From IMG/VR virus record IMGVR_UViG_3300035088_000013, positions 22,303 through 86,302 of that record: a stretch of DNA of 64,000 nucleotides; one strand, written 5' to 3'. The position numbers were made by a program, and so were the translations under genes. Numbering within the stretch: position 1 is the first letter of the stretch; each line of letters starts with the position of its first letter. The stretch is from a virus. Positions 1 through 40,017 of the stretch are shown here, piece by piece. The notes beneath the pieces were generated by a model. The model was not told the origin of the DNA. It saw nothing but the letters and a program-made list of their open reading frames with translations, and did no database searches.

Positions 1-239
1 AAGTGCAGGACCTCCCGCAGGTCGGTGGCGGCGGCCCGGCGGGCGGCCAGCAGGCTGGTGAAGGTCGCGAACAGGTGGGTGTCGGTGGCCTCGGCGTACC
101 AGGGGGTGCCGGGTTCCTCGGTGCGGATGAACACCCAGCCGGGTGTTTTGGCTTCCCATACCTCGAGGCGGCCGGTCCGCAGGTTCGGGTGGCGGGCGGT
201 GATGGTCACGGGGGGGAGGGTGCGGGTGGCGGTGGTCAT
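1..239 (-). CDS. Hypothetical protein, runs off the window start (MTTATRTLPPVTITARHPNLRTGRLEVWEAK...)
   Basis: ATG at 239 with a GAGAGG SD, downstream of the divergent promoter-hairpin copy; open frame with GC-rich third positions to base 1; not in the ORF track. Confidence 0.7.
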   Translation of the reverse strand, partial: MTTATRTLPPVTITARHPNLRTGRLEVWEAKTPGWVFIRTEEPGTPWYAEATDTHLFATFTSLLAARRAAATDLREVLH

Positions 240-260
240 GGGGTGCCTCTCTCTCGCGGT

Positions 261-330
261 GTCGTGGCCCCGCTCCAGCCGGGAGGACGACCACATAAGT
301 AAACCACGCCACCCCATTCATGTCAACAGG
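261..330 (-). promoter_or_regulatory. Divergent copy of the repeated promoter + UGGA-hairpin element
   Basis: Minus strand reads CCTGTTGACA-17 nt-TTTACT then GTCGTCCTCCC-G-GC-TGGA-GC-GGGGCCACGAC. Confidence 0.8.
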
Positions 331-357
331 TATCGCAACACGGAGGTCCAGCCGAAA

Positions 358-424
358 CCTGTTGACATCACGGTGTCGGTCGTGTTTACTTGGTTTGTGA
401 GCGGCGGGGGGCTGGAGCCCCCGC
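358..424 (+). promoter_or_regulatory. Repeated promoter + hairpin element, copy 1
   Basis: TTGACA 362-367, 17 nt spacer, TTTACT, then GCGGGGGGC-TGGA-GCCCCCGC. Confidence 0.85.
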
Positions 425-448
425 CCCAACCCCCGAGAGGCGGCCCCC

Positions 449-682
449 ATGAACACCTACACCGTGACCCTCCGCAAGGACGGCGGCCTGCGGATGCCCT
501 ACACCATGGCCGCCCCCGACACGGCAACCCTGTTCGCCGCGATCGACCCGAAGGACGAGGTCGTCTCGATCGTCCGGATCGACGACGACACCCCCGACTA
601 CCTGCTGGACTACCTGCCGCTGAGCGTCGCGTCCCGGGTCGCCGCGAACTCCGCGTTCTACGTCGGCGACCCGAACTCCTGA
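449..682 (+). CDS. Hypothetical protein
   Basis: ATG with GAGAGG SD directly after element 1. Confidence 0.8.
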   Translation: MNTYTVTLRKDGGLRMPYTMAAPDTATLFAAIDPKDEVVSIVRIDDDTPDYLLDYLPLSVASRVAANSAFYVGDPNS

Positions 683-712
683 CCACCCCACCCCGAGAAA
701 GCGAGCACCGCC

Positions 713-1084
713 ATGACGTCCCTTTTCGAGCTCCAGGTCGACCTCGAGCGCTGGGAGTTGGACCCGGCGACCATGCGGGTCGCCCAAGCGATGATCGACG
801 CCGCGTCCCCCGACCCCGACCAGGACCACGTAGCGGTCTACGTGGGGATCGCCCTGCCGGGCAAGCGGCGCGGTGTGTGGACCCTGGGCCAGCCCCTCGA
901 GGTCGCTGACGGGTTCTTCCTGGCCCGTACGGACGCGGAGGTGTCCCGGGCGCGTGAGTTCGCCGACCGGGCCGCGGAGACCCAGCTCGCGGGGCGGGCG
1001 GGGACGACCTCCTATGCGGCGGTCCGGCGCGGCGGGGGATCGGTGTTCGAGGGCATCTTCGGCGTCGAGGTGGCCGGGCCGTGA
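713..1084 (+). CDS. Hypothetical protein
   Basis: ATG, GC-rich third positions, coupled to next gene. Confidence 0.75.
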   Translation: MTSLFELQVDLERWELDPATMRVAQAMIDAASPDPDQDHVAVYVGIALPGKRRGVWTLGQPLEVADGFFLARTDAEVSRAREFADRAAETQLAGRAGTTSYAAVRRGGGSVFEGIFGVEVAGP

Positions 1085-1272
1085 TCGGCCGGATGCTGTT
1101 GCGCGGGCCGCGATATCCGCTGTTGTGGGCGGTCGCGGTGATCGTGCTGCTGCTGGTGGTGCTGCCCGTCTGGGTGGCGGTGCTGCTGGCGGTGGTGATG
1201 GTCGTGGCGGTGGTGGGCCTGGTCCGGCGGGGGGTTCGGCGGGTCCGGAGGCCCAAACAGAAACCCTGTTGA
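1081..1272 (+). CDS. Small membrane protein
   Basis: GTGA overlap; long hydrophobic stretch; stop codon lies inside the -35 box of element 2. Confidence 0.65.
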   Translation: MIGRMLLRGPRYPLLWAVAVIVLLLVVLPVWVAVLLAVVMVVAVVGLVRRGVRRVRRPKQKPC

Positions 1273-1330
1273 CATCCTGATGCCGGTCGTGTTTACTTGT
1301 CTTGTGAGCGCGGGGGGCTGGAGCCCCCGC
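1265..1330 (+). promoter_or_regulatory. Repeated promoter + hairpin element, copy 2
   Basis: TTGACA 1269-1274, 17 nt, TTTACT, hairpin. Confidence 0.85.
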
Positions 1331-1355
1331 CCCGACCCCCGAGAGGCGGCCCCCG

Positions 1356-1559
1356 ATGAGCATCTACGAGTACCGCGACGGCGTGAAGATGGCCAGCGAC
1401 GAGCTGGTGGAGTTCTGGAACAGCCGTGACCTGTGCTGGGCCTGCGACCAGATCCACACCCCGCAGCACACCACGGACGGCTTCCACCACTACCGGTGCC
1501 CGCGCAACAGCACCCACCCGTTCGACGAGCTGACCTGGAAGCGGCCCGTCACCGCCTGA
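1356..1559 (+). CDS. Small Cys/His-containing hypothetical protein
   Basis: SD + ATG after element 2; CWAC...HHYRCP. Confidence 0.8.
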   Translation: MSIYEYRDGVKMASDELVEFWNSRDLCWACDQIHTPQHTTDGFHHYRCPRNSTHPFDELTWKRPVTA

Positions 1560-1582
1560 ACCCCCGAGAGGACCCCCGACCC

Positions 1583-1822
1583 ATGACGCCTGAGACGTTC
1601 GTGATCCTCGGATCGATGCAATGGGGCTACGGCCCCACCCTGGACGCCGCGAAGCGGCGGTGGCGCACGCAAGGCCGCGGGAAACTCTCCGACGGCTACG
1701 GCGTCTACACCTTCGGCGAGGGGTCGACCTTCGAGGGGGTCGACAACCTCGGCCGGGTGCACTGGTCCGGCGAGCGGCCCGCGTTCACCGAGGTCCCGGC
1801 CCGGACCCGGAAAGCCTGTTGA
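1583..1822 (+). CDS. Hypothetical protein (MTPETFVILGSMQWGYG...)
   Basis: GAGAGGA SD, ATG 1583; stop inside the -35 box of element 3. Confidence 0.8.
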   Translation: MTPETFVILGSMQWGYGPTLDAAKRRWRTQGRGKLSDGYGVYTFGEGSTFEGVDNLGRVHWSGERPAFTEVPARTRKAC

Positions 1823-1878
1823 CATCGCACGGGTGATCGTGTTTACTTGGTTTGTGAGCGGGGGGCTGGAGCCCCCGC
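1815..1878 (+). promoter_or_regulatory. Repeated promoter + hairpin element, copy 3
   Basis: TTGACA 1819-1824, 17 nt, TTTACT, hairpin. Confidence 0.85.
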
Positions 1879-1899
1879 CCCAACCCCGAGGAGGCCCCC

Positions 1900-2121
1900 A
1901 TGACCACCATCACCCGGTTCCCGTGCCCCCACCCGGTGCAGGACGCCGACGAGGACGGCATCTACACCACCGACTGCGAGGCCCCGGCCGCGACCTACGC
2001 CGACGGCACCGGCTGGGCGTGCGTGAACGGCCACCACGACGCCGACGACTCCTACCGGGTCGAGGACCCGGCCGAGAACTTCCGCGAGCGGTACATCGAG
2101 CGGATGTACGCCACCGCGTGA
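1900..2121 (+). CDS. Small hypothetical protein
   Basis: GAGGAGG SD + ATG after element 3. Confidence 0.8.
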   Translation: MTTITRFPCPHPVQDADEDGIYTTDCEAPAATYADGTGWACVNGHHDADDSYRVEDPAENFRERYIERMYATA

Positions 2122-2177
2122 CCCCCCCCGGGCCGGGGGAGGCGACCCCCCGGCCCCCCGAGAGAGGCAGCACACCC

Positions 2178-2924
2178 ATGAGCACCCACGCGATCATCGG
2201 CACCCCCACCCCCGGCGGCGGATTCCGGGGCCGCTACGTCCACTACGACGGCGCGCCGCACGGCGTCGGCACAACCCTCGCGGCGATCATCGCTCGCGAC
2301 GGCCTCGAGCACGCCCTGCGGGTTCTCACCGAGGACCACACCTCCTGGGCAATGCTGGACGAGGACCTGCCCGAGCACCCCGACGACATCCCGTTCACCG
2401 TGCGCCACAACCGGCAGGTCGCCGGATACGGGATGGCGCACCACCCGGACGAGCCGACCGCTGCCGAGTGGTACTCCGACACCGGCACCACCGAGGCCGG
2501 GGCGGAGTGGGCGTACGCGGCCACCCCCGACGGCATCCAGGTGTGGCGGCGGCCGATCGGCGGGAGCTGGGGGCGGCGGCCCGACCTGGACATCACCTAC
2601 CCGGTCCGGGAGACCGTGTGGTGCGGCGCGGCGCACGGCGGCCCCGGGAAGCCGCACTTCGACCGGCCGGACTGCGTCGGCCCGCACTACACCGACCAGC
2701 GGACCCGTGAGCGGCTGAACGCCGAGCACATCCGGGCCGGGCGGCCGGACACCCCCGGCCACGGCGGCGGTGGACGTGCGGAGCTGCTGGACCTGCTGGC
2801 CGGGCGGATCGAGCTGGCCTACGCGAAATCCCGGACCGGGCATGTCGGCGAGCACGCACGGGAGATAGCGGAACTGATCCTGGACACCCCCGGCATCACC
2901 ATCACGAAGGAGCAGCAGGCATGA
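2178..2924 (+). CDS. Hypothetical protein (MSTHAIIG...YVHYDGAP)
   Basis: GAGAGG SD, ATG 2178; N-terminal ST..IG...Y.H.DG.P pattern recalled from phage/plasmid hypothetical proteins. Confidence 0.8.
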   Translation: MSTHAIIGTPTPGGGFRGRYVHYDGAPHGVGTTLAAIIARDGLEHALRVLTEDHTSWAMLDEDLPEHPDDIPFTVRHNRQVAGYGMAHHPDEPTAAEWYSDTGTTEAGAEWAYAATPDGIQVWRRPIGGSWGRRPDLDITYPVRETVWCGAAHGGPGKPHFDRPDCVGPHYTDQRTRERLNAEHIRAGRPDTPGHGGGGRAELLDLLAGRIELAYAKSRTGHVGEHAREIAELILDTPGITITKEQQA

Positions 2925-3220
2925 GTCTCGACGGGTTCTGGGCGGCGATCGACCACCAGCTCGAGCAGCTGCGGACGGCCACGACGGTCGACGAGGTGAT
3001 CGGCATCCTCGGCGGCAAGCACCCCGACTCGTCCGGGGATGCGTTCTTCGCCGGGGGCGGCGGCGACGGCTCGGTCTACGAGTCGCTGCGCGAGGCGGGC
3101 TGGGAGGTGGCCTGGTTCGACGCCGGGTACTACTGGGCGATGCGGACCCCCGACGGCCGGGACGGCATCACGTACGTCGAGGGCGACATCATGCGGGGGG
3201 TGCGCAAGCCGGTGTTCTGA
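2921..3220 (+). CDS. Hypothetical protein
   Basis: ATGA overlap, AAGGAG SD. Confidence 0.8.
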   Translation: MSLDGFWAAIDHQLEQLRTATTVDEVIGILGGKHPDSSGDAFFAGGGGDGSVYESLREAGWEVAWFDAGYYWAMRTPDGRDGITYVEGDIMRGVRKPVF

Positions 3221-3499
3221 GCCCGGGGTCCCCGGGGGCGTCCCGAACAGGCACCCCCGGGGGTAGGACATACGCAGCAGTGAGCATAACCGGCCGGTTC
3301 GCCCGGCCGGGGCGGGACACGCGCGGCGGGGCCTCCAGAACCCCGCTGGGCGGCCCGGCGGCCGGACGGGTACCCACGGGGTCCCCGCTGGCCGTGACGG
3401 GCCAGGGCGGGCGTCGTAGCGAGCCCCCCGGGTGGAGTTGCCTCTCCTCCCCGGGGCGCGGCCGGTACGACGCCCGCCTTGTCGTATCCACCACCCAAG

Positions 3500-3567
3500 C
3501 CTGTTGACATCACGCGGTGCATCGTGTTTACTCAGTTTGTGAGCGGCGGAGGGGCTGGAGCCCCCGC
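3500..3567 (+). promoter_or_regulatory. Repeated promoter + hairpin element, copy 4
   Basis: TTGACA 3504-3509, 17 nt, TTTACT, hairpin with an extra A in the 5' arm. Confidence 0.85.
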
Positions 3568-3590
3568 CCGAACCCGAAGGGGAGGCCGAC

Positions 3591-3860
3591 ATGTTCCGCA
3601 CCGAACGTGAGCGGGAGTGCTACCGGGCGTTGCACACCGGCGGAGAGGCGGCGCTGGAGGCGCTGGTCGGGGACGTGATCTCCACCGATCTGATCAACCG
3701 CTGGGCGGACGCGGGGATGCTCCGGGTGAAGAACCTCGACCCCGGACGCGCACCGAAGCCCCTGGTCCTGATGAACGCGGACGAGCGTGCCGCGTGGAAC
3801 GCCCACGTCATCGCGAACACCGGCTACACGATCAAGACGTTCGCGAAGTACGCCCACTGA
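3591..3860 (+). CDS. Hypothetical protein
   Basis: GGGGAGG SD + ATG after element 4. Confidence 0.8.
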   Translation: MFRTERERECYRALHTGGEAALEALVGDVISTDLINRWADAGMLRVKNLDPGRAPKPLVLMNADERAAWNAHVIANTGYTIKTFAKYAH

Positions 3861-3861
3861 T

Positions 3862-3927
3862 CCTGTTGACATGACGCAGGAGATGGTGTTTACTTTGTTT
3901 GTGAGCGCGGGGGGCTGGAGCCCCCGC
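3862..3927 (+). promoter_or_regulatory. Repeated promoter + hairpin element, copy 5
   Basis: TTGACA 3866-3871, 17 nt, TTTACT, hairpin. Confidence 0.85.
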
Positions 3928-3948
3928 CCCGCGAGAGAGGCCACCGAC

Positions 3949-4851
3949 ATGATGACCACCGCGAACACCACCGCCACCGCCGGGACCTGCCTGGCCTGCG
4001 GATTCGTCAACGCCACCACCGACCCCGCCACCGTCACCGCCTGCACCGGATGCGGGGAGCGGGTCGTGCTGACCTGGGTCCGGGGCGTCACCAACAAGCG
4101 GGTCCCCTGCGACGACCGGTGCCAATACGCCATCGGCTCCTACTGCTCCTGCGCCTGCGGCGGCCGCAACCACCGGGCCGGATACATCCACGTCGACCTG
4201 GTCCCCGCCTACATCCGGGAGCGCGACGCGAAACGGCACGCCGACCGGCTGGCCCGGGCCGCCAGCAAGGCCGCCGCGACCCGGGCCGCGCACGCCACCG
4301 CGATGGCCGAGCTGCTGGCCGAGCACCCCACCCTGGAGGCCCTGCTGGGCGACCGGTACGACGGCGCGTACGGCTTCATGGCCGACATGCGGGCCGCGCT
4401 GGAGCGGGGCGACATGACCCCCCGGCAGATCGAGGCCGCGACCGACGCCGTCGAGCGCGACGCCGCCCGGGACCGGGCACGCGACGAGCGGGACGCGGCG
4501 CGGGCCGCGCTGGCCGCCGCGGGGGTCAAGGTCACCGAGGGCCGCCGGGTCCTCGAGGGCGAGATCGTCCGGGTGTCCAGCAAGGAGAGCTACTTCGGCT
4601 ACCAGGAGCGGACCGTGTGGCAGATCATGGTCAAGCTGGCCGACGGGTGCACGGTGATGGGCACCCTGCCCGAGGGGATCCGGCCCACCTCCTACACCGG
4701 CGGCGAGGCCACCGACGAGGGCTCCTGGGCGTGGCACATGGCCCAGCTGGTCGGCAAGACCGTCCGGTTCACCGGCACCGTGAAGCCCTCCGACCGGGAC
4801 GAGACCTTCGGGTTCTACACCCGGCCCACCAAGGCCGCACTGGTCGACTGA
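3949..4851 (+). CDS. Cys-rich Zn-binding protein with a probable C-terminal OB-fold
   Basis: ATG 3949 after element 5; CLAC..CTGC and CDDRC...CSCACGGRNH; C-terminal beta-rich GKTVRFTGTVK...RP. Confidence 0.75.
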   Translation: MMTTANTTATAGTCLACGFVNATTDPATVTACTGCGERVVLTWVRGVTNKRVPCDDRCQYAIGSYCSCACGGRNHRAGYIHVDLVPAYIRERDAKRHADRLARAASKAAATRAAHATAMAELLAEHPTLEALLGDRYDGAYGFMADMRAALERGDMTPRQIEAATDAVERDAARDRARDERDAARAALAAAGVKVTEGRRVLEGEIVRVSSKESYFGYQERTVWQIMVKLADGCTVMGTLPEGIRPTSYTGGEATDEGSWAWHMAQLVGKTVRFTGTVKPSDRDETFGFYTRPTKAALVD

Positions 4852-4868
4852 GACTGGGCGCGGCGGGA

Positions 4869-4894
4869 CGCCCGGGGCTGACCGGCCCCGGGCG
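4869..4894 (+). terminator. Hairpin after the 3949 gene
   Basis: CGCCCGGGGC / GCCCCGGGCG inverted repeat. Confidence 0.5.
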
Positions 4895-4910
4895 GACCCG
4901 GTATCGTCTC

Positions 4911-5068
4911 CAGGCACAAGCACGGGCGCGGTCCACCCCGGCGGGCGTTGGTCACATGGGCCTCTCCGCCCGCCGTACCCCGGACCCCCGTGCTTGAGCG
5001 GCCTGCAAGTCGTCTCCAGCGCGCGCAGGTCGTGACTGAAAGCCCCCCGTGATCACCGGGGGGCTTTC
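4911..5068 (+). ncRNA. Candidate structured small RNA
   Basis: No credible ORF; nested pairings form a long rod; TATCGT -10-like box at 4902-4907; terminator at the 3' end. Confidence 0.4.
5038..5068. terminator. Intrinsic terminator, possibly bidirectional
   Basis: GAAAGCCCCCCG-TGATCAC-CGGGGGGCTTTC, 12-bp stem. Confidence 0.75.
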
Positions 5069-5128
5069 GGCGTTCACCGGTCCGGCTCGGGGTTACTCAT
5101 CCTTCCTTCCACGTGTAAGATGATCAGT

Positions 5129-5410
5129 ATGGCAAAGGACAAGGTCACCGTCACACTGGATCCCGAAATCATCGCCTACACCGACGCGGACGCGGCCAGC
5201 GAAGGCCTGAACCGCTCCGAATACGTCGAGCGGACCCTCCGCGACGTCCACAACCGGCTACGCGCCCGCCGCGCGGTGGAGGGGACCGCCGCACTGCTGG
5301 CCGATCCGGACTTCGCCGCCCAGCTGGCCGCCGCCCGCGCATGGACCGCCCCGTTCCGCGAAGCCCGCAGCCAGCACCTCAACGAGTTGAACGCCACGGC
5401 CGCCGCGTGA
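5129..5410 (+). CDS. Ribbon-helix-helix antitoxin
   Basis: KVTVTLDPE...D..A...GLNRSEYVE RHH pattern; probably leaderless from TAAGAT at 5116-5121 (alternative ATG 5120). Confidence 0.75.
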   Translation: MAKDKVTVTLDPEIIAYTDADAASEGLNRSEYVERTLRDVHNRLRARRAVEGTAALLADPDFAAQLAAARAWTAPFREARSQHLNELNATAAA

Positions 5411-5706
5411 AACACGCCGAGATCCACTCGCCGGACCGGCAGACCAACGCCAAGTTCGTGGTCCTCACCAGCGACAGCTGGAACAGCTCCGGCCAAGACC
5501 CGGTGATCGCCCATATCATCCGCAGCCACGGCGCGGGCAACGACCTCGTGATCGAGCTGAGCGAATTCGACCCGGTCAGCGGAGTCGTGCTCACGCCCTG
5601 GCCGGAGAGCATCCCGGCCAACGAACCTACCGAGCTGCTCGGCATGCTCACCGGCGCGACCATGGCCCGCCTCAAAGACGCGCTGCGCCTGCTGTACGAC
5701 CTGTGA
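5407..5706 (+). CDS. MazF/PemK-like toxin
   Basis: GTGA overlap with the antitoxin; VVLTSDSWN and G.L...M..L..AL..L.DL patterns. Confidence 0.65.
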   Translation: MKHAEIHSPDRQTNAKFVVLTSDSWNSSGQDPVIAHIIRSHGAGNDLVIELSEFDPVSGVVLTPWPESIPANEPTELLGMLTGATMARLKDALRLLYDL

Positions 5707-5753
5707 AAACAGCCTCACCCGGGCGGTCTCCGAATCCGGCCCCAGCGTTCCGT

Positions 5754-5798
5754 TCGCCCCCCTTCCGGCCCTGGCCGCCGAGGGGGGCGATTTCTTTT
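5754..5798 (+). terminator. Intrinsic terminator after the TA pair
   Basis: TCGCCCCCCT...AGGGGGGCGA stem followed by TTTCTTTT. Confidence 0.75.
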
Positions 5799-5804
5799 CC
5801 CCTA

Positions 5805-5873
5805 CCTGTTGACATCCTGGCTGTGTCCGTGTTTACTTAGTTTATGAGCGGCGGGGGGGCTGGAGCCCCCCGC
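5805..5873 (+). promoter_or_regulatory. Repeated promoter + hairpin element, copy 6
   Basis: TTGACA 5809-5814, 17 nt, TTTACT; hairpin arms G7/C6. Confidence 0.85.
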
Positions 5874-5893
5874 CCCGCCCGAGAGGAGCCCCC

Positions 5894-6127
5894 ATGACCA
5901 CCACGATCGACACCCCCCGCGGCCCGATCTCCGTCGGCGCGCGGATCGGCTACAAGCCCTTCCTGGGCGGCCTGCGCATGGTCACCGTGACCCTGGTCGA
6001 CCCCGACATCAGGAACGGCCGTCCCGGGTTCGAGGGCGTCGTCGACGGCGTCACCGACCCCGACGACGCCGGGGTGTGGGGTTACGCCGACCAGATCATC
6101 CGGATCTACGACCGGGGGCTGGCGTGA
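5894..6127 (+). CDS. Small hypothetical protein
   Basis: GAGGAG SD + ATG after element 6. Confidence 0.8.
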   Translation: MTTTIDTPRGPISVGARIGYKPFLGGLRMVTVTLVDPDIRNGRPGFEGVVDGVTDPDDAGVWGYADQIIRIYDRGLA

Positions 6128-6399
6128 TGAGCGCGCTCACCGTGCGGGAGCTGCTGGACGGCCTCGCGGACGGCCGGTTCACCCTCGAGCAGGTGGCGGC
6201 GGACTTCGCCGCCCGGCCGTGGCCGCCGTTGCCGCCGCGGCCGACTCTGGCCCAGGCGTACGGGGTGAACGATGACGAGCTGGTCGGCGACCCGGACTCG
6301 TGGAAGCAGGTGCAGACCGATCCGCGGTTGACCGGCGTCCAGTACGAGGTCCTGTTCCACGCGGCCGGGCCGCAGACCCGACAGGAGGGTCCGGCGTGA
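6127..6399 (+). CDS. Paralog of 30935-31192 (candidate orphan immunity protein)
   Basis: Coupled to the upstream gene; 56/81 identical residues, ungapped manual alignment, to the 30935-31192 product. Confidence 0.85.
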   Translation: MSALTVRELLDGLADGRFTLEQVAADFAARPWPPLPPRPTLAQAYGVNDDELVGDPDSWKQVQTDPRLTGVQYEVLFHAAGPQTRQEGPA

Positions 6400-6665
6400 G
6401 CGAGATCTACCGGCCGGGGGAGGTGGTCGCGGTGAGCGTCGACGGCGGGGTGCGGCCGATGTACGTGCACCGGGTGGTGCAGCTGCTGGTCGTGGGGACG
6501 TCGCCGGAGGGCGGCCGGACGTGCAAGGTGGGGGAGCGGGAGGTGGTCGCGGTCGGGCTCCCGGCGGTCTCCGAGGCGGTCGCGCGGGCGTCGGGGTTCG
6601 ACGTGCAGCAGGTGGCCGAGAGCATCGCGGAGGACTACGCCGATTGGGTCGCGGACCAAAACTAG
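6396..6665 (+). CDS. Hypothetical protein
   Basis: GTGA overlap, AGGAGG SD. Confidence 0.7.
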   Translation: MSEIYRPGEVVAVSVDGGVRPMYVHRVVQLLVVGTSPEGGRTCKVGEREVVAVGLPAVSEAVARASGFDVQQVAESIAEDYADWVADQN

Positions 6666-6669
6666 CCCG

Positions 6670-6736
6670 CCTGTTGACATCACGTGCCAGATCGTGTTTA
6701 CTTGGTTTGTGAGCGGCGGGGGGCTGGAGCCCCCGC
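6670..6736 (+). promoter_or_regulatory. Repeated promoter + hairpin element, copy 7
   Basis: TTGACA 6674-6679, 17 nt, TTTACT, hairpin. Confidence 0.85.
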
Positions 6737-6766
6737 CCCCGACCCCGACCCCCCGAGGAGGCCCCC

Positions 6767-6949
6767 ATGTACGACGTCCACCCCGCCTACGCCGACGCGA
6801 ACGGCACCTACGCCTGGTGCGACCGGCACGACCTGACCACCGTGGTCGCCGAGCACACCGCGGTCGGCTACGCGGGCGGCACCGTCTGGTCCCTGGAGCT
6901 GGCCTGCGGGTGCACCGAGACCAGCGAGACCATCGGGGACATCCGGTGA
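6767..6949 (+). CDS. Small hypothetical protein
   Basis: GAGGAGG SD + ATG after element 7. Confidence 0.8.
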   Translation: MYDVHPAYADANGTYAWCDRHDLTTVVAEHTAVGYAGGTVWSLELACGCTETSETIGDIR

Positions 6950-7386
6950 CCGGCCACCGGTGGCGGCCGGTGCCGCTGTGGCCGTCCGCGCGGCGGTGCT
7001 CGGCGTGCCGCCTGGTCGCGGCCCGGTTCGGCGGCGAGAAGCCGGGATCGTTCACCGCGTGGATGTCCGGCGGGGTCCTGTTGGGCACCAGCCAGCGGGA
7101 CACCGAGCCGGGGTGCCCGACCCCGTACGCCCCGAACGCGGGATCCGGCCCGAAGCGGGGCTGGCAGGCCGTCTACGGCGACGCCTCGAGGCAGGCGGTC
7201 CCCACCCCCGCGCAGGTCCGCGTCCTCGCCCAGGGCCTCGCCAGCGGCGACACGGTCCTCGAGGGCGGGCACCGTCCGGCGACCGTGGCCCGGATGCGCA
7301 CGTACGGGTGGCTCGACAACCGGTACCGGGTCACCCCGGCCGGGGCGGCGGCGTTCGGGCGGCGCGGCGGCCGGGTGCCCGCCTAG
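6946..7386 (+). CDS. Hypothetical protein, possible C-terminal winged helix
   Basis: GTGA overlap; TPAQ..VL...TVARM...GWL...VTPAG pattern. Confidence 0.65.
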   Translation: MTGHRWRPVPLWPSARRCSACRLVAARFGGEKPGSFTAWMSGGVLLGTSQRDTEPGCPTPYAPNAGSGPKRGWQAVYGDASRQAVPTPAQVRVLAQGLASGDTVLEGGHRPATVARMRTYGWLDNRYRVTPAGAAAFGRRGGRVPA

Positions 7387-7661
7387 GCCGTGGGTGGCGG
7401 GGCGGGCGGGACGGCGATCCGGTTCACCTCGAGGACGAACGTCTGCGCGTCTACGTTGATGGCGAGGGTGTTGCCGGTGAGCCGGTCGACCGCGGCCACG
7501 TGCTCCCCGCCGTCGATCAGGGCGGCGAGGTAGGACACGAACCTTTCCACGCCCATCGGGGGCGGCTCGTGGACGGCCGCTTCGCGGCGCAGCCCGCAGA
7601 ACCGGCCGCCGACGTCGTACATGCACGTTCCGGCCGCGCTGATCAGGAATGGGTGGCCCAT
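7383..7661 (-). CDS. Hypothetical protein, antisense to the array, probably leaderless
   Basis: TACACT -10-like box 7 nt before ATG 7661; fills the gap between cassettes. Confidence 0.6.
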   Translation of the reverse strand: MGHPFLISAAGTCMYDVGGRFCGLRREAAVHEPPPMGVERFVSYLAALIDGGEHVAAVDRLTGNTLAINVDAQTFVLEVNRIAVPPAPPPTA

Positions 7662-7698
7662 CCCGGGGAGTGTACGGGGCCGGGAAACCCCCGCATCG

Positions 7699-7762
7699 CC
7701 TGTTGACATCGCGTGCGGGATGGTGTTTACTTGGTTTGTGAGCGGGGGGCTGGAGCCCCCGC
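7699..7762 (+). promoter_or_regulatory. Repeated promoter + hairpin element, copy 8
   Basis: TTGACA 7703-7708, 17 nt, TTTACT, hairpin. Confidence 0.85.
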
Positions 7763-7784
7763 CCCGAGCGCCCGGGAGGCCCCC

Positions 7785-8144
7785 ATGTTCACCACCTACG
7801 AGATCCTCACCGCCCGCATCGGCGCGACGTTCGACGGCCTGATCGTCGCGGACCGGTCCTGGCCCGCGGACGCGCCGAAGCCCGGCCCGGAGCTGGAGCC
7901 CGGCTCGGACGCCTGGTACGAGGCCATCGGCCCGGCGGGCACGGTGTACCTGACCTCCGACGGCCGCGGAGCGAACACCTACGGGTGGTGCGAGTGTGGC
8001 GGACAGACCGGCCAGGTGTGGTTCGACTCGCCCGGCATCGGCGAGGGCCAGGTGTGGGTGCGCTACGAGCGGTACACGCCCGCGGGGCGGGAGGCGCACG
8101 GGTGGGTGCACCAGGGCTGCCGGATGCTGCTGCAGGTCGGCTGA
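7785..8144 (+). CDS. Hypothetical protein (MFTTYEILTARIG...)
   Basis: GGGAGG SD + ATG 7785 after element 8. Confidence 0.8.
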   Translation: MFTTYEILTARIGATFDGLIVADRSWPADAPKPGPELEPGSDAWYEAIGPAGTVYLTSDGRGANTYGWCECGGQTGQVWFDSPGIGEGQVWVRYERYTPAGREAHGWVHQGCRMLLQVG

Positions 8145-8151
8145 GCGGGCC

Positions 8152-8179
8152 GGGGGTGTTGGCGATCGCCAACACCCCC
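8152..8179. terminator. Perfect 28-bp palindrome, likely terminator
   Basis: GGGGGTGTTGGCGATCGCCAACACCCCC between a stop codon and element 9. Confidence 0.55.
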
Positions 8180-8197
8180 CGGATCGGTTACCGAAAC

Positions 8198-8259
8198 CCT
8201 GTTGACATGACGCGGTTCATCGTGTTTACTTGACTTGTGCGGGGGGCTGGAGCCCCCGC
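8198..8259 (+). promoter_or_regulatory. Repeated promoter + hairpin element, copy 9
   Basis: TTGACA 8202-8207, 17 nt, TTTACT, hairpin. Confidence 0.85.
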
Positions 8260-8280
8260 CCCGCCCCAAGGAGGCCCCCG

Positions 8281-8598
8281 ATGGCGACGATGATCCGCTG
8301 CGGCACCTGCATCAACCGGCACGCGACCGTCGCGGATGTTCGCGAGTGCGCCGCGGAGTTCTACGACTACCAGGCCCAAAGCGAGGGTGAGATCTACGCC
8401 GAAGCGGTCATGTCCTGGGTGATGGGCGGCGGGAACCCCGAGGATGCCTCCCTCTACGCGGGAGTGATCGCCCGCGGCGGCGTCTGGAACGGCGGCATCG
8501 CACCCCCCGGCGACGACGACGGCGACGACGAGCTGTGCGAGCACGGCTTGTCCGCCCGGCTGTGCGTCGGCCCCTCCCACTACCCCCTGGACATGTGA
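8281..8598 (+). CDS. Cys/His-containing hypothetical protein
   Basis: AAGGAGG SD + ATG 8281; CGTC..H...C and CEHG....C...HY. Confidence 0.8.
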   Translation: MATMIRCGTCINRHATVADVRECAAEFYDYQAQSEGEIYAEAVMSWVMGGGNPEDASLYAGVIARGGVWNGGIAPPGDDDGDDELCEHGLSARLCVGPSHYPLDM

Positions 8599-8667
8599 CC
8601 ACCACCCCCCCCGGCCCCCGGGCGATCCCGCCCGGGGGGAACGTCAACGTTCCGGAAAGGACACACC

Positions 8668-8961
8668 ATGGCGACTCTCTCCCGCGACCAGTGGGAAAAG
8701 CTGCTCGACGCACTGGCCGACCTCGAGGCCATCGACGAGGGCCACCAGCCCCACCCCGACGACACCGACTGCGCCGCGTTCGTCCTCGCCAGCACCGGCC
8801 AGATCGTGCGGTTCGGCGGGTTCCTCGCCCAGGCGTTGACCAACGCCGGGCTCGGCGACTTCGACCGGGACCTGTTCTACGACGATGCCCGCACGGAGAT
8901 CATCGACCGCGGCCGGGTGCTGCTGTACTTCCGGTCCGTCACGATCGCGAAGGGAGAGTGA
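8668..8961 (+). CDS. Hypothetical protein
   Basis: GAAAGGA SD + ATG. Confidence 0.8.
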   Translation: MATLSRDQWEKLLDALADLEAIDEGHQPHPDDTDCAAFVLASTGQIVRFGGFLAQALTNAGLGDFDRDLFYDDARTEIIDRGRVLLYFRSVTIAKGE

Positions 8962-8963
8962 GC

Positions 8964-9209
8964 ATGGATTGGACGATGCCCGCGGAGTTGGAGCCGTACC
9001 GGGAGCTGATCACCAACACCGGCGGCAACACCGTGGAAAGGCTGATGAGCATCTATCTGGCCGGGGGTGAGGCCGGTGCCCGGATGATGCAGACGAACCT
9101 TCCGGTGTATCTGATGGCGTGCATGTGCGGCGCGCAGATCGCATTGCTGCGGGTGCTGGTGCGGGAGGGGAAGCTCCCCGCGCGCGGCCCGGCCGCTGGA
9201 GCGCGGTGA
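8964..9209 (+). CDS. Hypothetical protein (MDWTMPAELEPY...)
   Basis: GGGAG SD, ATG 8964. Confidence 0.7.
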   Translation: MDWTMPAELEPYRELITNTGGNTVERLMSIYLAGGEAGARMMQTNLPVYLMACMCGAQIALLRVLVREGKLPARGPAAGAR

Positions 9210-9448
9210 TGGGCCGCGCGTACGAGAAGCGGATGGCCCGGTTGCAGGCCGCGCAGGAAGCAACCGGCCGCGCCCCGGCTCCGGCGGGGCCGATGCACCG
9301 GGCCAGCCGGGAGGCGTTCGTGCGCGGTTTCGGCCTGTCGGCGGCGGCCGTCAAGCAGTTGGTCGACCGGTGGGAGGCTGACGCGGTGGCCTGTTACGAC
9401 AAGGGGTTCGACGACGGGCGGGAGTGGCAGGAGGAGCAGCAGGGGTGA
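9209..9448 (+). CDS. Hypothetical protein
   Basis: TGATG overlap. Confidence 0.65.
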   Translation: MGRAYEKRMARLQAAQEATGRAPAPAGPMHRASREAFVRGFGLSAAAVKQLVDRWEADAVACYDKGFDDGREWQEEQQG

Positions 9449-9669
9449 AGCGGCGGGGGTGGCTGGAGCGGCTGAGAGCCGATCTGCCGGGCTGGTACGT
9501 GTGGGCGACCGGGTACGGGAGGCAGTGGCATGCGGTGCCGCTGGCGGGCGGCTGGCGGGTCGGCCGGGCTCCCCGGGGGGCTCCGGGGCGGATCGACGCG
9601 CCGTCGCCGATCGTGTTGCGCAGTCTGGTGCGTCAGAAAGAACGAGACAACCCCACTCCACCCTGTTGA
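9445..9669 (+). CDS. Hypothetical Trp-rich protein
   Basis: GTGA overlap, GGAGGAG SD; stop inside the -35 box of element 10. Confidence 0.6.
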   Translation: MKRRGWLERLRADLPGWYVWATGYGRQWHAVPLAGGWRVGRAPRGAPGRIDAPSPIVLRSLVRQKERDNPTPPC

Positions 9670-9725
9670 CATCCGAACGGGTGACGTGTTTACTTGGTTT
9701 GTGAGCGGGGGGCTGGAGCCCCCGC
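9662..9725 (+). promoter_or_regulatory. Repeated promoter + hairpin element, copy 10
   Basis: TTGACA 9666-9671, 17 nt, TTTACT, hairpin. Confidence 0.85.
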
Positions 9726-9748
9726 CCCAACCCGGAGAGGCAACCACC

Positions 9749-10135
9749 ATGAGCCGTGAACTCACCCCCTGGGCCGCGACCGCGAAGGCCACCCGCACCG
9801 CGATCAAGGCCCGCCGTGACGAGCTGGGCATCCCGGCCACCGCCACGATCAAGGTCACCTCCGACTCCTTCGCCGGGGGCGCGTCGGTGGACGTGTGGAT
9901 CGGCGACGCCGACTCATGGGCGTGGCGGACCGCGACCGACCTCGATCGCGCCCGGAACACCTGGCTGACCCCGGGGGAGCGGGTCCTCACCGCACAGGCC
10001 AAGGCCACGGGGGACGCGATCGAGGCCGTCCTCCGGGAGGTTCGCACGGCCGGTTACATCTGGGGATCGGTCACCTACGAGGGCACCGTCATCGGATCGC
10101 TGGCCCGTGCGGGCTGGCAGCCGGGCCAGGACTGA
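9749..10135 (+). CDS. Hypothetical protein (MSRELTPWAATAK...)
   Basis: GGAGAGG SD + ATG 9749 after element 10. Confidence 0.8.
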   Translation: MSRELTPWAATAKATRTAIKARRDELGIPATATIKVTSDSFAGGASVDVWIGDADSWAWRTATDLDRARNTWLTPGERVLTAQAKATGDAIEAVLREVRTAGYIWGSVTYEGTVIGSLARAGWQPGQD

Positions 10136-10152
10136 GAGAGAGGTCTACGGTC

Positions 10153-10407
10153 ATGTATTTGTTCGCGGACCCCGAGGCGATCATCTGCGCGGCGCGCATG
10201 ATCACCCGGGACTGGGGGTCGACCGGCTACGCGGTCTCGGCCGTCACCGGCGGCCCCCGCCGGTCGGTTGTCCTCGAGGTGACCTGCTCCGACGGGGGCC
10301 GGTTCCACGTCGGATCCACCCGGCACGGCAACACCACCCACGCCGACACCTTCACCCAGGTGCTCGACTGGCTCACCGCCCGAACCGAGGAGGAAGCACG
10401 ACCATGA
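10153..10407 (+). CDS. Hypothetical protein
   Basis: GAGAGG SD + ATG 10153. Confidence 0.75.
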   Translation: MYLFADPEAIICAARMITRDWGSTGYAVSAVTGGPRRSVVLEVTCSDGGRFHVGSTRHGNTTHADTFTQVLDWLTARTEEEARP

Positions 10408-22801: not shown

Positions 22802-25800
22802 TTAGCCGAGCCCCCTTGCCAGCCAGTCGAGGTCACGCGCGACCACGGACGGGTCGGCCCCGTGTTCGTGGTAGTTCTCGATGTTCAACCCGCCCCGCGC
22901 ACCCCAACCGGCAGCAGCACGCGCGAGGGTGTGCATGTCGGTCCACTGCTGGTCGGTGAGTACCGCGTCCGGGGTGGCCGACCCGTGATAGACGGGCATC
23001 ACCTGGCCGGGGTAGCGGCGCGTGTCGGGCAGCAGCCCGCCCCGGTCGAACGAGGGGATACCGATGCCGGGCTCCGGCCACCCGAACCTCAGGAACGCCT
23101 TGAGCCGCTCATCGTAGGGGGCGTTGAGGATCGACGGCGACACCTGCCCGCCGGACGCCAGCCCGGGCAAATGCAGGATGTCGTCGTAGTACGACAACCG
23201 GGTGCCCACGTGCCCGATAGCCAAGGGTGTGCCGTTGCCGTGGTAGGCCTCCGCGTGCAACCCGTCGATGTTCGCCGCGGTATGCGACCCCTTCTTCAAA
23301 TAAATGGTGAACCGGCCCGGCCCTTTCTCCATTCCGTAACGCCCGGCACCCATTCCCGCGGTGGTCATGTAACGACGGTAGAGGGAATTGCCGGTGGCCA
23401 GAGCCCAAAGATTTCCAACAAGGCCACTGCAATCGTATCTGTCGGGGCCGACAGCGGACCACAAATACGTTTTGCCGCGCTGCCCGAGCGCCCATTCCTG
23501 CATTGATTTCAGCATCGGATCCGGCGACAGCGTACCGGTCCACGGTTTCGTGTCGCCGGGCTGGGTGTAGGAGCCGGTGATCTTCTTCAGCCACGTCACG
23601 GCCACATCGGTGATGCGTTTCGGGATCCCCGCAAGCAGTTTGAACCATTCGGAGTCCTGGAAGGGGATCTGCGCCATGAGCTTGTCGGCCAAATTGGTGA
23701 GGAACTTTCTCGGGTCCTTCACCGCGTCCAGGGCCGCCCCGGCGAAGTCGGAGACGACCTTCCCGACGGTTTTGGCTTTGTCACCGATCCAGCCGAACAC
23801 GCCGCCGCCGCCCGCATACCCGGGCAGGCCGTCCGCGCCGATCCTCGGCCGCACGTTGACGGCACCTCCGGCGGCGAACCCGGCCAGCTCGGAGAGGCGT
23901 CCGGCGAGGGCCGCGCGGCGCAGCTTGAGCATGTTGTCATGGCCGCCGATCGCGGCGACCTCCGCGGCGGTCCACACGTGCTCGTCGTCGGACAGCCGCG
24001 CGAGGATGCTGTCACTGGTGCCGGTGCCCGGCCCGCGGACCGGGCCGCCGACGGCGAACCCTTTCGGCAGCTTGATCGGGGTGATCTGGAAATCCGGGAC
24101 GTGCAGCGCCGTACCGACGTCGTTGAGGGTGCCGATGATGCCTTTATTGATCACCGTTTCGATGACGAATCGCACCGGCTCTTTCATGATGTCCTGCAAT
24201 TTCGACCAGGCCGTTTTTATCGCCTCTACGCCTTGCCCGAACAATGGGGCGACTTTCGTCTGGATGTACGTCGAAATAATGTCGAAGACGATCTTGACTT
24301 TGTCCCAGATTTCCGAGATCTTGGCGTGCACCGCATCCCACACCGGCGTGATGACGTGATCCCGGAACCACGTGAAAATTGGTCCCAAAACGGTCGACAC
24401 GTACGTTTTTACGGCGTCGAAGATGAACTTGATGAGGCCCCACGCCCATTTGATCACTGTCCAGATGCCCGTGAAAACCGGCTCGATGACGCCGTGCCAC
24501 AACGCCATGAACATCGGCGCGATGATGCCTTCGACCCACAGCCGGATGATCCCGAAGATGATGCGGATGATGCCCCACGCGACGCTGATGGCGAGCTGGA
24601 TGCCCTGCCAGGCGCGCAGGATGATGGTCTGCCAGAACCACAGGAAGATCGGCGCGAGCACGTTGGAGATGAACCACCAGATCGCTTGCAGCACGACCTG
24701 GATGACCGACCAGGCGGCCTGGATCGCGGCCCAGATCCCGGCGAAGGCGGGGACGATGACCGATTGCCACAGCCACACGAAGATCGGTGCGAGGGTGCCG
24801 GTGATGAACCCCCAGATCGCTTGCAGCACCGGCTGGATGACCGCCCACGCGGCCTGGATCGCCGCCCAGATCCCCGCGAACGCGGGGACGATGACGTTCT
24901 GCCACAGCCACACGAACACGGGGGCGAGGACCTGCGACATGAAGGCCCACCAGATCTTGAACAGGATCTGGAGGTAGCCCCAGTAGAGTTTCACCGCGGC
25001 CCAGATGCCCTGGAACGCGGGGATGACGACGTTCTGCCACAGCCACAGCAGGACCGGGACGAGCTTGGTCATGATGAAGTCGCCGACGGCCTTCAACGCG
25101 GGCAGGATGTAGTTCTGCCAGGCCATGACGATGAACCCGGAGATCGCTTTCCAGGTGCGGTCGACGAAGTCGCGGAACGCCTGGTTCTTCTTGTAGAGCA
25201 CCACCAGGCCGACCCCGATGGCCACCACCGCGGCGATGATCAACCCGATCGGGCCGAGCGCGGCGGTGAACGCGGCCCCCATCCCCTCGGCCCCGGCCGC
25301 CGCTGCGCCTTCCGCCGCGACCGCGGCAGTGCCCGCACCTTCCACGCTTGCTGCTGCTGCGCCCGCGGCCGGGGGTACCAAGCCCAGGAACGTGGCGATC
25401 CCTTTGATCGCCCCGCCCACGGTGTTCAGCACCGTGATGACCTTCGCTACCGACGCGAGCCCGGCGATCGCGGCGGCACCACCGATGAGGAACCCGAGGA
25501 TCGTCGTGAGGGTGCCGGTGTCGATACCGGCGATGTAGTCGAACAGCTTGGTGAAGAACCCGAGCGCCCAGTCACCGATCGGGGCGAGCGCGATGATGAG
25601 GTTCTTCACCGCACCGAACATCGATTTGAGCAGCGCACCCACCTTGGGCAGCTCCGCCATCGCGTAGGCGAGGAAGTCCTGGAAGCCTTTGCTCTGGCCG
25701 AGGTTGTCAGCCCAGACGGCGATCTTCTGCAGGATGTCGAGGAAGCCCTTACCGATGGGTCCGGCAACCGGGGCGAACGCCTTCAGCAGCCCGGCGACGG

Positions 25801-29255: not shown

Positions 29256-29894
29256 CTACGGCACCACCAGCGCGTCGAGGACGTAGAACCAGTGGATCGC
29301 TACGCCGTCGGTGCCGGGGTAGGCGGTGAACGTGACCCCGTAGGTGAGCGGCGCGCCCGGCGCGGCGGCGAAGTCTTCCTGGCCGGTGACCTCCAATTGC
29401 GGGACGAGCGCGCGCACATGGTTCTTGCCGTCGACGATGTCGAAGTACGCCGCGTACAGCTGGCTGCGGGCGGACCCTTCTTGGATGTCGAACGATCCGT
29501 CGGAGTCGTCGACGGTGATACCGGGGTCGGTCGGTTGTGCCGGGGGGCCGAGCGGCAGCTCGTGGTAGATCGCCAGCGACACCGGGTTGCTCTCGAGGAA
29601 CTTGATCGAGAAGGTGGTCGTGCGGGACGTCTTGATGATCCGCACCGGAACGGACGACCCGTACGCGTTGACCTCGTTGGTGTTCACGTTGACGGCGCGG
29701 GTGAGGCCGTCCTCGGTGATCCAGCCGGGGTCGAACCACGGCGGGGTCGGGGCGGCCGGGGCTACGGGCTGCACCGGGTCGGTCAACGCGTCGACGGGCA
29801 TGGTGGCTCCGACGTTGGCGAACATCGCCAGGGCGGTACCGGCAGCACCGCCACCACTTATTCCGGCCAGGATCAGATTTCGGTTGGCGGTCAT
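29256..29894 (-). CDS. Major tail protein
   Basis: GWITEDGL...VR...FLESN...DG...YGVTFTAYP. Confidence 0.9.
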   Translation of the reverse strand: MTANRNLILAGISGGGAAGTALAMFANVGATMPVDALTDPVQPVAPAAPTPPWFDPGWITEDGLTRAVNVNTNEVNAYGSSVPVRIIKTSRTTTFSIKFLESNPVSLAIYHELPLGPPAQPTDPGITVDDSDGSFDIQEGSARSQLYAAYFDIVDGKNHVRALVPQLEVTGQEDFAAAPGAPLTYGVTFTAYPGTDGVAIHWFYVLDALVVP

Positions 29895-29989
29895 CCCACT
29901 GGGTCCTTCCATCGTGGACATGCGGAGGACCCCGACACCGGCACGGTGCGGGGTGGTGAACGCGGCGAGGAGAACTGCTCATGCAGTGG

Positions 29990-30934: not shown

Positions 30935-31192
30935 CTAGGTGGAGCGGGTTTGTGGACCGGCGGCCTCGAACAACGCCTTGTACTGGTCGCTGGTGATCCG
31001 CGGGTCGATCTCCACCTGTTTCCACGAGTTCGGGTCGACGTCCGGCTCGTCGTCGTGGACGCCGTACTGTTGGGCCAGGGTCGGCCGCGGCGGCAACGGC
31101 GGCCACGAGCGGGCGGTGAAGTCGTCGCACACCTGCTGAAGGGTGAGCCGCCGGTTGGCCAGATCGTCGAGCAGCTGCTTCACCGTCGCCAC
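30935..31192 (-). CDS. Small protein after the zeta-like toxin (candidate immunity)
   Basis: AAGGGAG SD, GTG 31192, 13 nt after the toxin stop; paralog at 6127-6399. Confidence 0.85.
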   Translation of the reverse strand: MATVKQLLDDLANRRLTLQQVCDDFTARSWPPLPPRPTLAQQYGVHDDEPDVDPNSWKQVEIDPRITSDQYKALFEAAGPQTRST

Positions 31193-31205: not shown

Positions 31206-32165
31206 TTACTGGCCGATGCGGCCGTTGTTCGCGACCAGGACCGGATCCCTGCCGTCGACCGAGTTGTCGTAGTGCGCCCAATTCGAGAAGCCACTCTTGA
31301 GTCCCTCGAACACGTCCATGTTCACCGTTCTACCGGAGGAGGTCTTCTGCGCGCGGATGATCCGCGGGTCGACATACCGGCCGCCGTGCCCTTCGCCTTT
31401 GAGCCACTTGTTCACGCCCCTCTTGTACCGGCCCATGGCCCGCTGGACACTCTTCTCCACCGGAATGTCCACGAACAGGCCGTCGACCTGGCCGTAGCCT
31501 GCTGCCTTGAGCGCCTTGACCCGGCCGCGTACGGAGCTGTCGGAGCTCATGGTGATGTCCCAGATGACGTTCTTGTGGTCGGCGTACGCCCTCGCCGCGA
31601 GCGCCTTCGCGATGTCGGAGGACTCCTCGTGCACGAGTCCGGCGCGTTCCATCGGGGAGAACTCTTCACCCCCGGGCACCTCGGGCATCAGGCCACGCTT
31701 GGCCAATTCCTCCTTGATGTCATCCGGGTTGATCGTCAGGAACCGGGACTTGTCCACGCCCGCGTGCTTATTGAGCACGCTGCTTTTCCCGGCCCCGCCC
31801 AATCCTCCGGCGATGATCGCCTTGCCCTCGTTCGGCACGTGAGCGGCCTTCGCGTACAGGTCGTCGACGATCTGCCGGTGCACGTCGGCCCGCTCGGCCG
31901 ACCACCGGCCGCCATCCATGTGAGTGACGTCGGTCGAGAGGGTCGGCGACACTTCCTTGGCGAGCTTGCCGACCTTCTCGCCGCGCACCGTCAACTGTTC
32001 GTCGGTGAACTGGCCGGTGAGCGGGGTCAGGTGGGTCGTGGTGCCGGTGCTGCCCCGGGTGATGACCTTGATATCCGGGCCGCCCCGGCCGCCGCCGCCG
32101 TGGCCGTGGGAGAACTTCCCCGTCAGATCCCGCGGGTGCAGCGACTCTTCCCAGCGTCTGTTCAT
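31206..32165 (-). CDS. Zeta-toxin-like P-loop kinase with an N-terminal HPRD tag
   Basis: ATGA overlap; Walker A GGLGGAGKSS, INPDDIK, VHEESS, NVIWDIT, GGRYV. Confidence 0.8.
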   Translation of the reverse strand: MNRRWEESLHPRDLTGKFSHGHGGGGRGGPDIKVITRGSTGTTTHLTPLTGQFTDEQLTVRGEKVGKLAKEVSPTLSTDVTHMDGGRWSAERADVHRQIVDDLYAKAAHVPNEGKAIIAGGLGGAGKSSVLNKHAGVDKSRFLTINPDDIKEELAKRGLMPEVPGGEEFSPMERAGLVHEESSDIAKALAARAYADHKNVIWDITMSSDSSVRGRVKALKAAGYGQVDGLFVDIPVEKSVQRAMGRYKRGVNKWLKGEGHGGRYVDPRIIRAQKTSSGRTVNMDVFEGLKSGFSNWAHYDNSVDGRDPVLVANNGRIGQ

Positions 32166-32461: not shown

Positions 32462-32483
32462 CCCGGTCCCCTTTCCGTTCCGC

Positions 32484-39852: not shown

Positions 39853-40017
39853 TCAGCGCGGTTTACGGGCGGCGTTGGTGAGGATGACCGGCGGGTAGTC
39901 GACCTGCTGGCGGGCCTGCACCCTTTGGGCGTCGGACAGCTGTCGCGCGCTACGTACCGCTTCCGGGACGGGTGACGGTGACGTCGACGAGCCGGGTTCC
40001 TTCGGCGTCGGTGCCAT
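39853..40017 (-). CDS. 54-aa ORF overlapping the end of ART2 (candidate immunity)
   Basis: ATG 40017 with GAAGGTGG upstream; MAPTPKE...DAQRVQARQQVDYPPVILTNAARKPR; below the ORF-track cutoff. Confidence 0.5.
   Translation of the reverse strand: MAPTPKEPGSSTSPSPVPEAVRSARQLSDAQRVQARQQVDYPPVILTNAARKPR

Follow-up and report, generated by a model that had tools for sequence, protein, structure and literature searches.

Enzymes that phages deliver from the capsid are widely predicted and poorly understood, and a central question is how a toxin is controlled once it has been injected into a cell that the phage needs alive. This question is raised by a small gene in the early arm of a temperate soil actinophage, a copy of which also stands in the late operon, directly behind the gene for a zeta-like kinase. 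What does the encoded protein, here called X, do, and why does the phage carry it twice?

Genome Context of the Two X Genes

The phage is IMG/VR virus record IMGVR_UViG_3300035088_000013 (86.3 kb, estimated completeness 95%), of which we analyzed bases 22303-86302. This 64,000-nt stretch, with a G+C content of 69%, is referred to as the window, and all coordinates below are those of the window unless a locus is named. A tyrosine integrase gene (59236-60516, minus strand) indicates that the phage is temperate. The late operon occupies the minus strand and includes the following features.

46213-47520, minus strand: terminase
43229-45199, minus strand: portal
42126-43220, minus strand: MuF-type minor capsid protein 2
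40936-42333, minus strand: first ADP-ribosyltransferase-like protein
39950-40717/40720, minus strand: second ADP-ribosyltransferase-like protein, with an HPRD..GRF motif at 40637-40663
37531-38439, minus strand: P22-type coat protein
32162-32527, minus strand: HK97 gp10-like protein, ahead of the kinase
31206-32165, minus strand: kinase, 319-aa form starting at ATG 32165 (P0092, gene-caller record), in an ORF open to 32312
32112-32138, minus strand: HPRD..GKF motif at the kinase N-terminus, ahead of a disordered linker
30935-31192, minus strand: X-late, 85 aa, pI 4.69, with a GTG start at 31192
29256-29918, minus strand: tail tube
22802-28111, minus strand: 1769-aa ORF without a Pfam match, the presumed tape measure by its size and position

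After the gp10-like gene, the order is therefore kinase, X-late, two small genes and the tail tube gene, and the kinase is free-standing among head-tail connector genes. The two ADP-ribosyltransferase (ART)-like genes (39950-42333, minus strand) match ADPrib_exo_Tox at 4.9e-21 and 1.1e-6 and lie directly 3' of the MuF-type minor capsid gene. Elsewhere on the minus strand (50322-51682), a PTPS (QueD-like) gene adjoins a TET-associated glycosyltransferase (TAGT) gene, a pair that suggests DNA base hypermodification.

The second X gene, X-early, belongs to the sixth cassette of the early arm, which is composed as follows.

5798-5890 (approximate), plus strand: element 6, putative promoter and leader, with TTGACA, 17 nt, a TTTACT-like box, a G/C hairpin and GAGGAG
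5894-6127, plus strand: first gene of cassette 6, 77 aa, without family or paralog, its stop overlapping the X-early start (ATGA)
6127-6399, plus strand: X-early, second gene of cassette 6, 90 aa, acidic, pI 4.43
6396-6665, plus strand: third gene of cassette 6, 89 aa, without family or paralog, its GTG overlapping the X-early stop (GTGA)

Ten copies of an element of approximately 90 nt are found on the plus strand within positions 1-10200 (span 349-9746), and each heads a short gene cassette. They share the architecture CCTGTTGACAT, a spacer, the -10-like box GTGTTTACTTGGTTTGTGAGCGG, the G/C hairpin GGGGGCTGGAGCCCCC, GAGGAG and ATG, which resembles a strong promoter of the host type joined to a leader of conserved structure. 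X-early had been placed behind promoter element 6, and this element is indeed the sixth of the ten by order. Judging by their overlaps, the three genes of the cassette, with X-early in the middle, are translationally coupled. Promoter type, strand and gene position also suggest that X-early would be expressed early. Upstream of cassette 6 (5120-5706, plus strand), a 96-aa ORF with a weak ribbon-helix-helix match (E 0.003) overlaps a 121-aa ORF. This ORF pair has no repeat element of its own and may represent a small regulator or a toxin-antitoxin-like pair.

The Two X Genes Are Paralogs Kept by Selection

The initial annotation, made from the sequence, had aligned the two products by hand without gaps and counted 56 identical residues out of 81. 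BLASTP (6127-6396, plus strand, against 30938-31192, minus strand) reproduced this count, with 65/81 positive positions, 0 gaps and an E value of 2e-41, and the three strings singled out as shared, WPPLPPRPTLAQ, SWKQV and AAGPQTR, were all found in both proteins. At the DNA level, 189 of 243 nt are identical, and the similarity, 80% across 233 nt, stops at the ORF ends. Different codons are used at 19 of the 56 identical residues. A comparison of substitution rates, which had been proposed as a check, yielded a dS of 0.54 and a dN of 0.19; the resulting dN/dS of 0.35 corresponds to purifying selection on both copies. This ratio, together with the codon differences at identical residues, indicates that both X genes are kept by selection and that their match is far above chance.

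Only X was duplicated, as neither its cassette-6 neighbors nor its late neighbors have a second copy in the genome. X-early and X-late are mutual closest relatives (66%), the next best matches being at 47% for X-early and 44% for X-late, and three other records hold one copy each while two copies occur solely in this phage. Mutual closest relatedness and single copies elsewhere point to a duplication inside this lineage that was retained by selection. Within the family alignment, mean column conservation was 0.45 at positions where the two copies differ versus 0.55 where they are the same. X-early could in principle be a passenger duplicate without a function of its own, as might be expected of a duplication that is restricted to the ORF and to this phage, but we regard this as very improbable given a dN/dS of this size at a dS of 0.54, an intact frame with coupled overlaps and the retention of family-conserved positions.

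X Defines a Family of Small Acidic Proteins

X had no match in Pfam (E 0.1), PHROGs, NCBIfam or PADLOC, and nothing was found below E 0.1 among PDB sequences. In the cultured-phage collection, searched as DNA and as protein, there was no match for either X copy or for P0009. A word-index search returned a single close relative, P0002, with 82% identity. With a profile, a search of 1.84 billion representatives recovered 80 proteins at E ≤1e-3, including 20 at 1e-10. The majority of these 80 family representatives are stand-alone proteins of 71-98 aa, and the median pI across this acidic family is 4.5. No match was obtained when metagenome contigs were scanned for X, genome contigs with query A1, or patterns with alignment A4. 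Longer fused forms were also searched for with A2 and none was found, a search rated as weak evidence by the tool itself.

Two viral matches (L003 and L004) were set aside as chance hits, both being short and L003 also out of frame within another gene. Proteins with multi-stretch matches (P0010, P0018, P0025, P0033, P0046, P0066, P0067, P0078, and P0080) were taken as unrelated repeat proteins on the basis of a partial profile match: seven of them cover only positions ~31-80 in a re-scan, and P0010 and P0078 come from the profile search alone.

The AlphaFold model of X-late, built on a 36-sequence alignment (pLDDT 79, pTM 0.62), predicts a small domain of helices, the acidic central part of which is modeled with lower confidence. 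This model had no neighbor in the PDB (Foldseek, E 1e-3), a best Z score of 4.0 in the VIA wide search, and only unnamed clusters with scores below 0.9 in the ESM Atlas. In the main text of papers found by full-text literature searches, neither the X family is described nor any paralog, expressed early, of a protein that partners a zeta-like kinase in a head module, although supplements may list either one. Pairing a toxin-like kinase with a small partner follows a known logic, to which the X family, the setting among capsid cargo and the early duplicate add new variants.

The Kinase Belongs to the AvrRxo1/Zeta Class

The kinase matches the Pfam family Zeta_toxin (2.8e-16), and its Walker A motif GGLGGAGK, an NPDD motif and several arginines are invariant across 30 aligned relatives. 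This is the only Zeta_toxin match in the genome, so X-early has no kinase beside it, in line with the original observation that the early copy lacks an adjacent toxin. The structural model of the kinase has a pLDDT of 89, with residues 21-46 disordered (pLDDT <50). Its best fold match was AvrRxo1-ORF1 (4z8q_A; E 2.6e-9, TM 0.52, 18% identity), and AvrRxo1-ORF1 chains made up the top four of the first seven matches (E 2.6e-9 to 5e-8, TM ~0.52). Zeta (3q8x and 1gvn) and PezT (2p5t) structures were matched as well at E 3e-8 to 4e-7, with polynucleotide kinases after them. A search of the PDB sequences with the kinase profile gave no match at 1e-3, which makes the protein a distant member of the AvrRxo1/zeta class. 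A word-index search, in which 8000 candidates were scored, recovered 1202 relatives at E ≤1e-10, and the phage collection contained 37%-identical matches only, from two Mycobacterium phages in three records.

The nearest solved folds, AvrRxo1, zeta and PezT, are toxins, all of which were solved with a small inhibitor partner bound. Membership in a fold class made up of toxins that small partners keep in check favors an inhibitor role for X, as do the complementary charges of an acidic X (pI ~4.5) and a basic kinase (pI 9.3).

Most of the 30 aligned kinases start with W-x-E-x-x-HPRD-x-x-G-K/R-F, followed by a variable linker. The form W-x-E-x-LHPRD-x-x-G-K/R-F is common to the kinase of the window (32112-32138) and the second ART-like protein (40637-40663). 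The motif is a candidate head- or capsid-targeting tag and the second ART-like protein a candidate for another tagged cargo, and the presence of the same N-terminal motif on both proteins agrees with the idea of a tagged-toxin system put forward in the initial annotation.

X Is Linked to One Clade of Kinases

X-late starts 13 nt past the TAA stop codon of the kinase, as reported before, with the ribosome-binding site AAGGGAG located 5' of its GTG. To see how general this arrangement is, we turned to 51 kinase-anchored viral loci with 4-kb flanks, 26 with close (E ≤6e-40) and 25 with distant zeta-like kinases. Using the X profile, X was found adjoining the kinase gene in 17 of the 26 close-kinase loci versus none of the 25 distant-kinase loci, the first count becoming 14 of 23 distinct loci when near-duplicate pairs (L018/L019, L021/L022, and L028/L029) are considered. 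X lies on the same strand and 3' of the kinase ORF in 16 of the 26 loci, with its start -1 to 285 nt after the stop; in the 17th (L030) it is convergent on the opposite strand. The remaining nine close kinases (L023, L025, L026, L027, and L035-L039) have no X within 4 kb, showing that the kinase can occur without it.

The linkage was also recovered from the side of X. All three X-anchored viral loci have X directly after a Zeta_toxin-domain protein, which is a 1364-aa Portal_Mu-Zeta fusion in L005, a 747-aa protein with a C-terminal Zeta domain in L006 and a 346-aa Zeta protein after the portal in L007. Among bacteria, X was detected in 4 of 401 Micromonosporaceae genomes and 2 of 275 Micromonospora genomes, and in the class sample in 1 of 401, which is the sample center itself. 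Two of the four Micromonosporaceae genomes carry kinase-adjacent prophage copies (G004, corresponding to L005/L008, and L014) and the other two carry orphans (L013 and L015). It had been asked whether homologs usually lie 3' of zeta-like genes, and the counts answer in the affirmative for 3/3 viral X loci, 2/4 Micromonosporaceae genomes and 17/26 close-kinase loci. The distances among kinases and among X proteins were correlated (Mantel r 0.56, 15 pairs), a value reached by 1 of 2000 permutations; this signal reflects co-inheritance at least, and co-inheritance alone can yield it. We conclude that the linkage between X and the kinase is real.

Two other gene arrangements were seen at these loci. 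The prophage at L014 has the same trio as the window, namely the kinase, X and two ARTs. On one viral contig, a 79-aa ORF resembling ribosome modulation factor (RMF, 1.6e-7) is inserted between the kinase polyprotein and X (L024:5473-5709).

Fusions and Head-Gene Modules

Kinase and X both lie in head-gene modules. The relatives of the kinase are encoded after the portal gene or before the major capsid gene, or are fused to the portal (L005, L023, and L027), to MuF (P0012 and P0042) or to an S78 prohead protease (L016). These fusions, and the position between portal and capsid genes, support delivery by the capsid. Zeta-like kinases fused to MuF have been noted in phages, and their delivery with the DNA has been proposed (Iyer et al. 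2017, PMC5512222). For the free-standing kinase of the window, packaging and injection are plausible from its gene position.

X itself takes part in fusions. In three chains that begin with MuF, X comes after the Zeta domain (P0012, 1782 aa; P0084, 1835 aa; P0042, 2190 aa). It also forms the N-terminus of proteins with an ART (P0032), a 2H-like (P0014), or a DUF3626 domain (P0065), the 2H-like call resting on HxT motifs judged by eye rather than on a family scan, and of proteins with unnamed domains (P0011, P0024, P0058, and P0064). In P0035, X follows DUF4031. P0058 and P0064 share a C-R-N-P-L-H-P-G-P-C motif after X and then continue into unrelated C-terminal domains; this motif may be a joint or a processing site in cargo proteins. 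The order Zeta, X, 2H/LigT phosphoesterase recurs in P0012, L005:5822-8134, and L007:4189-9078, raising the possibility of nucleotides or RNA ends, rather than UDP-GlcNAc, as the kinase substrate. A search for a 2H phosphoesterase in the genome of our phage gave no match, and the order seen in these relatives thus does not hold here.

Such fusions are unusual for a dedicated antitoxin, whether in cis to the kinase or in front of ART, 2H-like, DUF3626 and other domains. They raise the alternative of X as a docking or adaptor module without inhibitory activity, which would bind the kinase or the head interior and load cargo, or would be a subunit with a regulatory or substrate-selecting function. 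When ART, 2H and other domains follow it in a fusion, X would piggy-back them onto the kinase, and X-early would have a separate role, for example with the injected kinase. The architecture is that of a trafficking module, with X inside the kinase chain (P0012, P0084, and P0042) and N-terminal to varied enzyme domains (P0032, P0014, P0065, P0064, P0058, P0011, and P0024), and this alternative would also account for the position of X, always within head-assembly gene modules, for the recurring Zeta, X, 2H phosphoesterase order (P0012, L005, and L007) and for the absence of X near 9 of the 26 close kinases. Still, we find it somewhat unlikely. The commonest form of X is a stand-alone protein of ~80 aa with no cargo of its own, and the kinases already possess their own N-terminal motif or a fusion to portal, MuF or protease.

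X Copies Uncoupled From the Late Genes

A further objection to an adaptor comes from the copies of X that are uncoupled from the late genes, for which there is no head to load. These are X-early, the convergent copy of L030 and the chromosomal orphans of L013 and L015, the latter surrounded by metabolic genes on a bacterial chromosome. The copies of L030 and L013 are located as follows.

L030:5242-5502, minus strand: X copy abutting the kinase gene, convergent
L013:6001-6252: orphan X on a Micromonosporaceae chromosome, 160 nt 5' of a type I hsdR gene (6414-9173) with hsdM beyond it and no kinase nearby

The L030 copy, being on the opposite strand, must be transcribed separately from the late operon. 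Copies that are off the late operon or in host chromosomes fit a protector and are hard to reconcile with a packaging adaptor. The orphans found number just two, and a defense system adjoins only one of them.

That one orphan (L013), adjoining a type I restriction-modification system, fits another explanation, in which X is an independent small effector, such as an acidic anti-defense protein carried along within the same cargo module, is needed early and has no direct contact with the kinase. Many anti-restriction proteins are small and acidic like X, and X is found in proteins of the polyvalent type, which are described as combining independent effectors (PMC5512222). This explanation appears improbable, as X is confined to one kinase clade (17/26 versus 0/25), tightly coupled to the kinase stop codon and correlated with the kinase in its distances.

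Comparison With Known Systems

The closest known counterpart is AvrRxo1-ARC1 of Xanthomonas. Its kinase is the best fold match and is a delivered effector, and the gene of a small helical partner follows immediately 3' (with a 13-nt gap here and -1 to 285 nt in 16 loci). The ARC1 gene lies downstream of AvrRxo1, and its product is described as an antitoxin that doubles as a secretion-enhancing delivery chaperone (bioRxiv 10.1101/2023.12.02.569727). X differs in that neither its sequence nor its fold is detectably similar to ARC1, in a proposed delivery by the phage capsid instead of type III secretion, and in the existence of a second, separately expressed partner copy.

The toxin of epsilon/zeta and PezA/PezT is a P-loop kinase of the same fold class and Pfam family, with Walker A and a catalytic Asp (compare GGLGGAGK and NPDD here), and the partner is likewise small, acidic and helical, with 80-90 aa. 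Both of these systems encode the antitoxin 5' of the toxin within a single operon, whereas here X comes after the kinase, in the window as well as at 16 of the 26 loci. X had no match to epsilon or PezA in any sequence or fold search, and its setting is a phage head operon rather than an addiction module on a plasmid or chromosome.

Polymorphic toxins of the MuF type (Jamet 2017) and polyvalent proteins (Iyer 2017) resemble the present case in that relatives of the kinase are fused to MuF, portal or protease and have a small ORF behind them. Small ORFs behind MuF toxins are usually read as immunity genes (PMC5576092). The kinase of the window departs from this pattern in being free-standing with an N-terminal motif, and X in that it can be an internal polyprotein domain; the X family goes unnamed in the accessible text of this MuF and polyvalent-protein literature.

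A Possible Off Switch for an Injected Kinase

Taken together, we tentatively favor X as a protein that binds and inhibits a head-packaged, injected kinase, acting as an antitoxin or chaperone by analogy with ARC1. Binding of X to the kinase, a step common to the inhibitor and adaptor readings, is predicted with good confidence. The initial annotation had called X-early an immunity protein, made early against toxin injected with the virion or as orphan immunity against related phages. That proposal is strengthened by the linkage of homologs, the toxin fold class, the opposite charges and the uncoupled copies, and weakened by cis fusions that suit an adaptor or docking module at least equally well and by the nine of 26 close kinases without X. 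Much of the evidence for inhibition and for an adaptor could be brought together if X had two roles, as ARC1 does.

We infer a course of packaging, injection, early expression, binding and inhibition that would run as follows. In this temperate actinophage, the basic AvrRxo1/zeta-like kinase would be made with the head proteins, most likely packed in the capsid and injected with the DNA. The small, acidic and helical X-late, translated right behind the kinase, would keep it from acting in the cell that produces it or in the lysogen, and might escort it as well, a role modeled on that of ARC1 for AvrRxo1 and of epsilon for zeta. X-early would be produced from its putative strong host-type promoter as soon as DNA entry begins, or else perhaps during lysogeny, and would catch virion-borne kinase, either the phage's own or that of a related superinfecting phage, so that the action of the injected enzyme is shortened. 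The full scenario, in which an early immunity paralog times an injected zeta/AvrRxo1-like kinase as a built-in off switch and orphan copies in prophages and bacterial chromosomes confer immunity when related phages inject their kinases, is possible but doubtful in our estimate. If true, it would mean that a toxin-immunity arms race is conducted via virion cargo.

This work defines an unannotated family that is linked specifically to a single clade of zeta/AvrRxo1-like kinases encoded in head modules. In this phage, the family was duplicated into an early cassette with what looks like its own promoter, which offers a simple testable pair, the kinase with either paralog. This pair could tell whether early immunity proteins turn injected toxins off, and whether orphan copies protect hosts or prophages.
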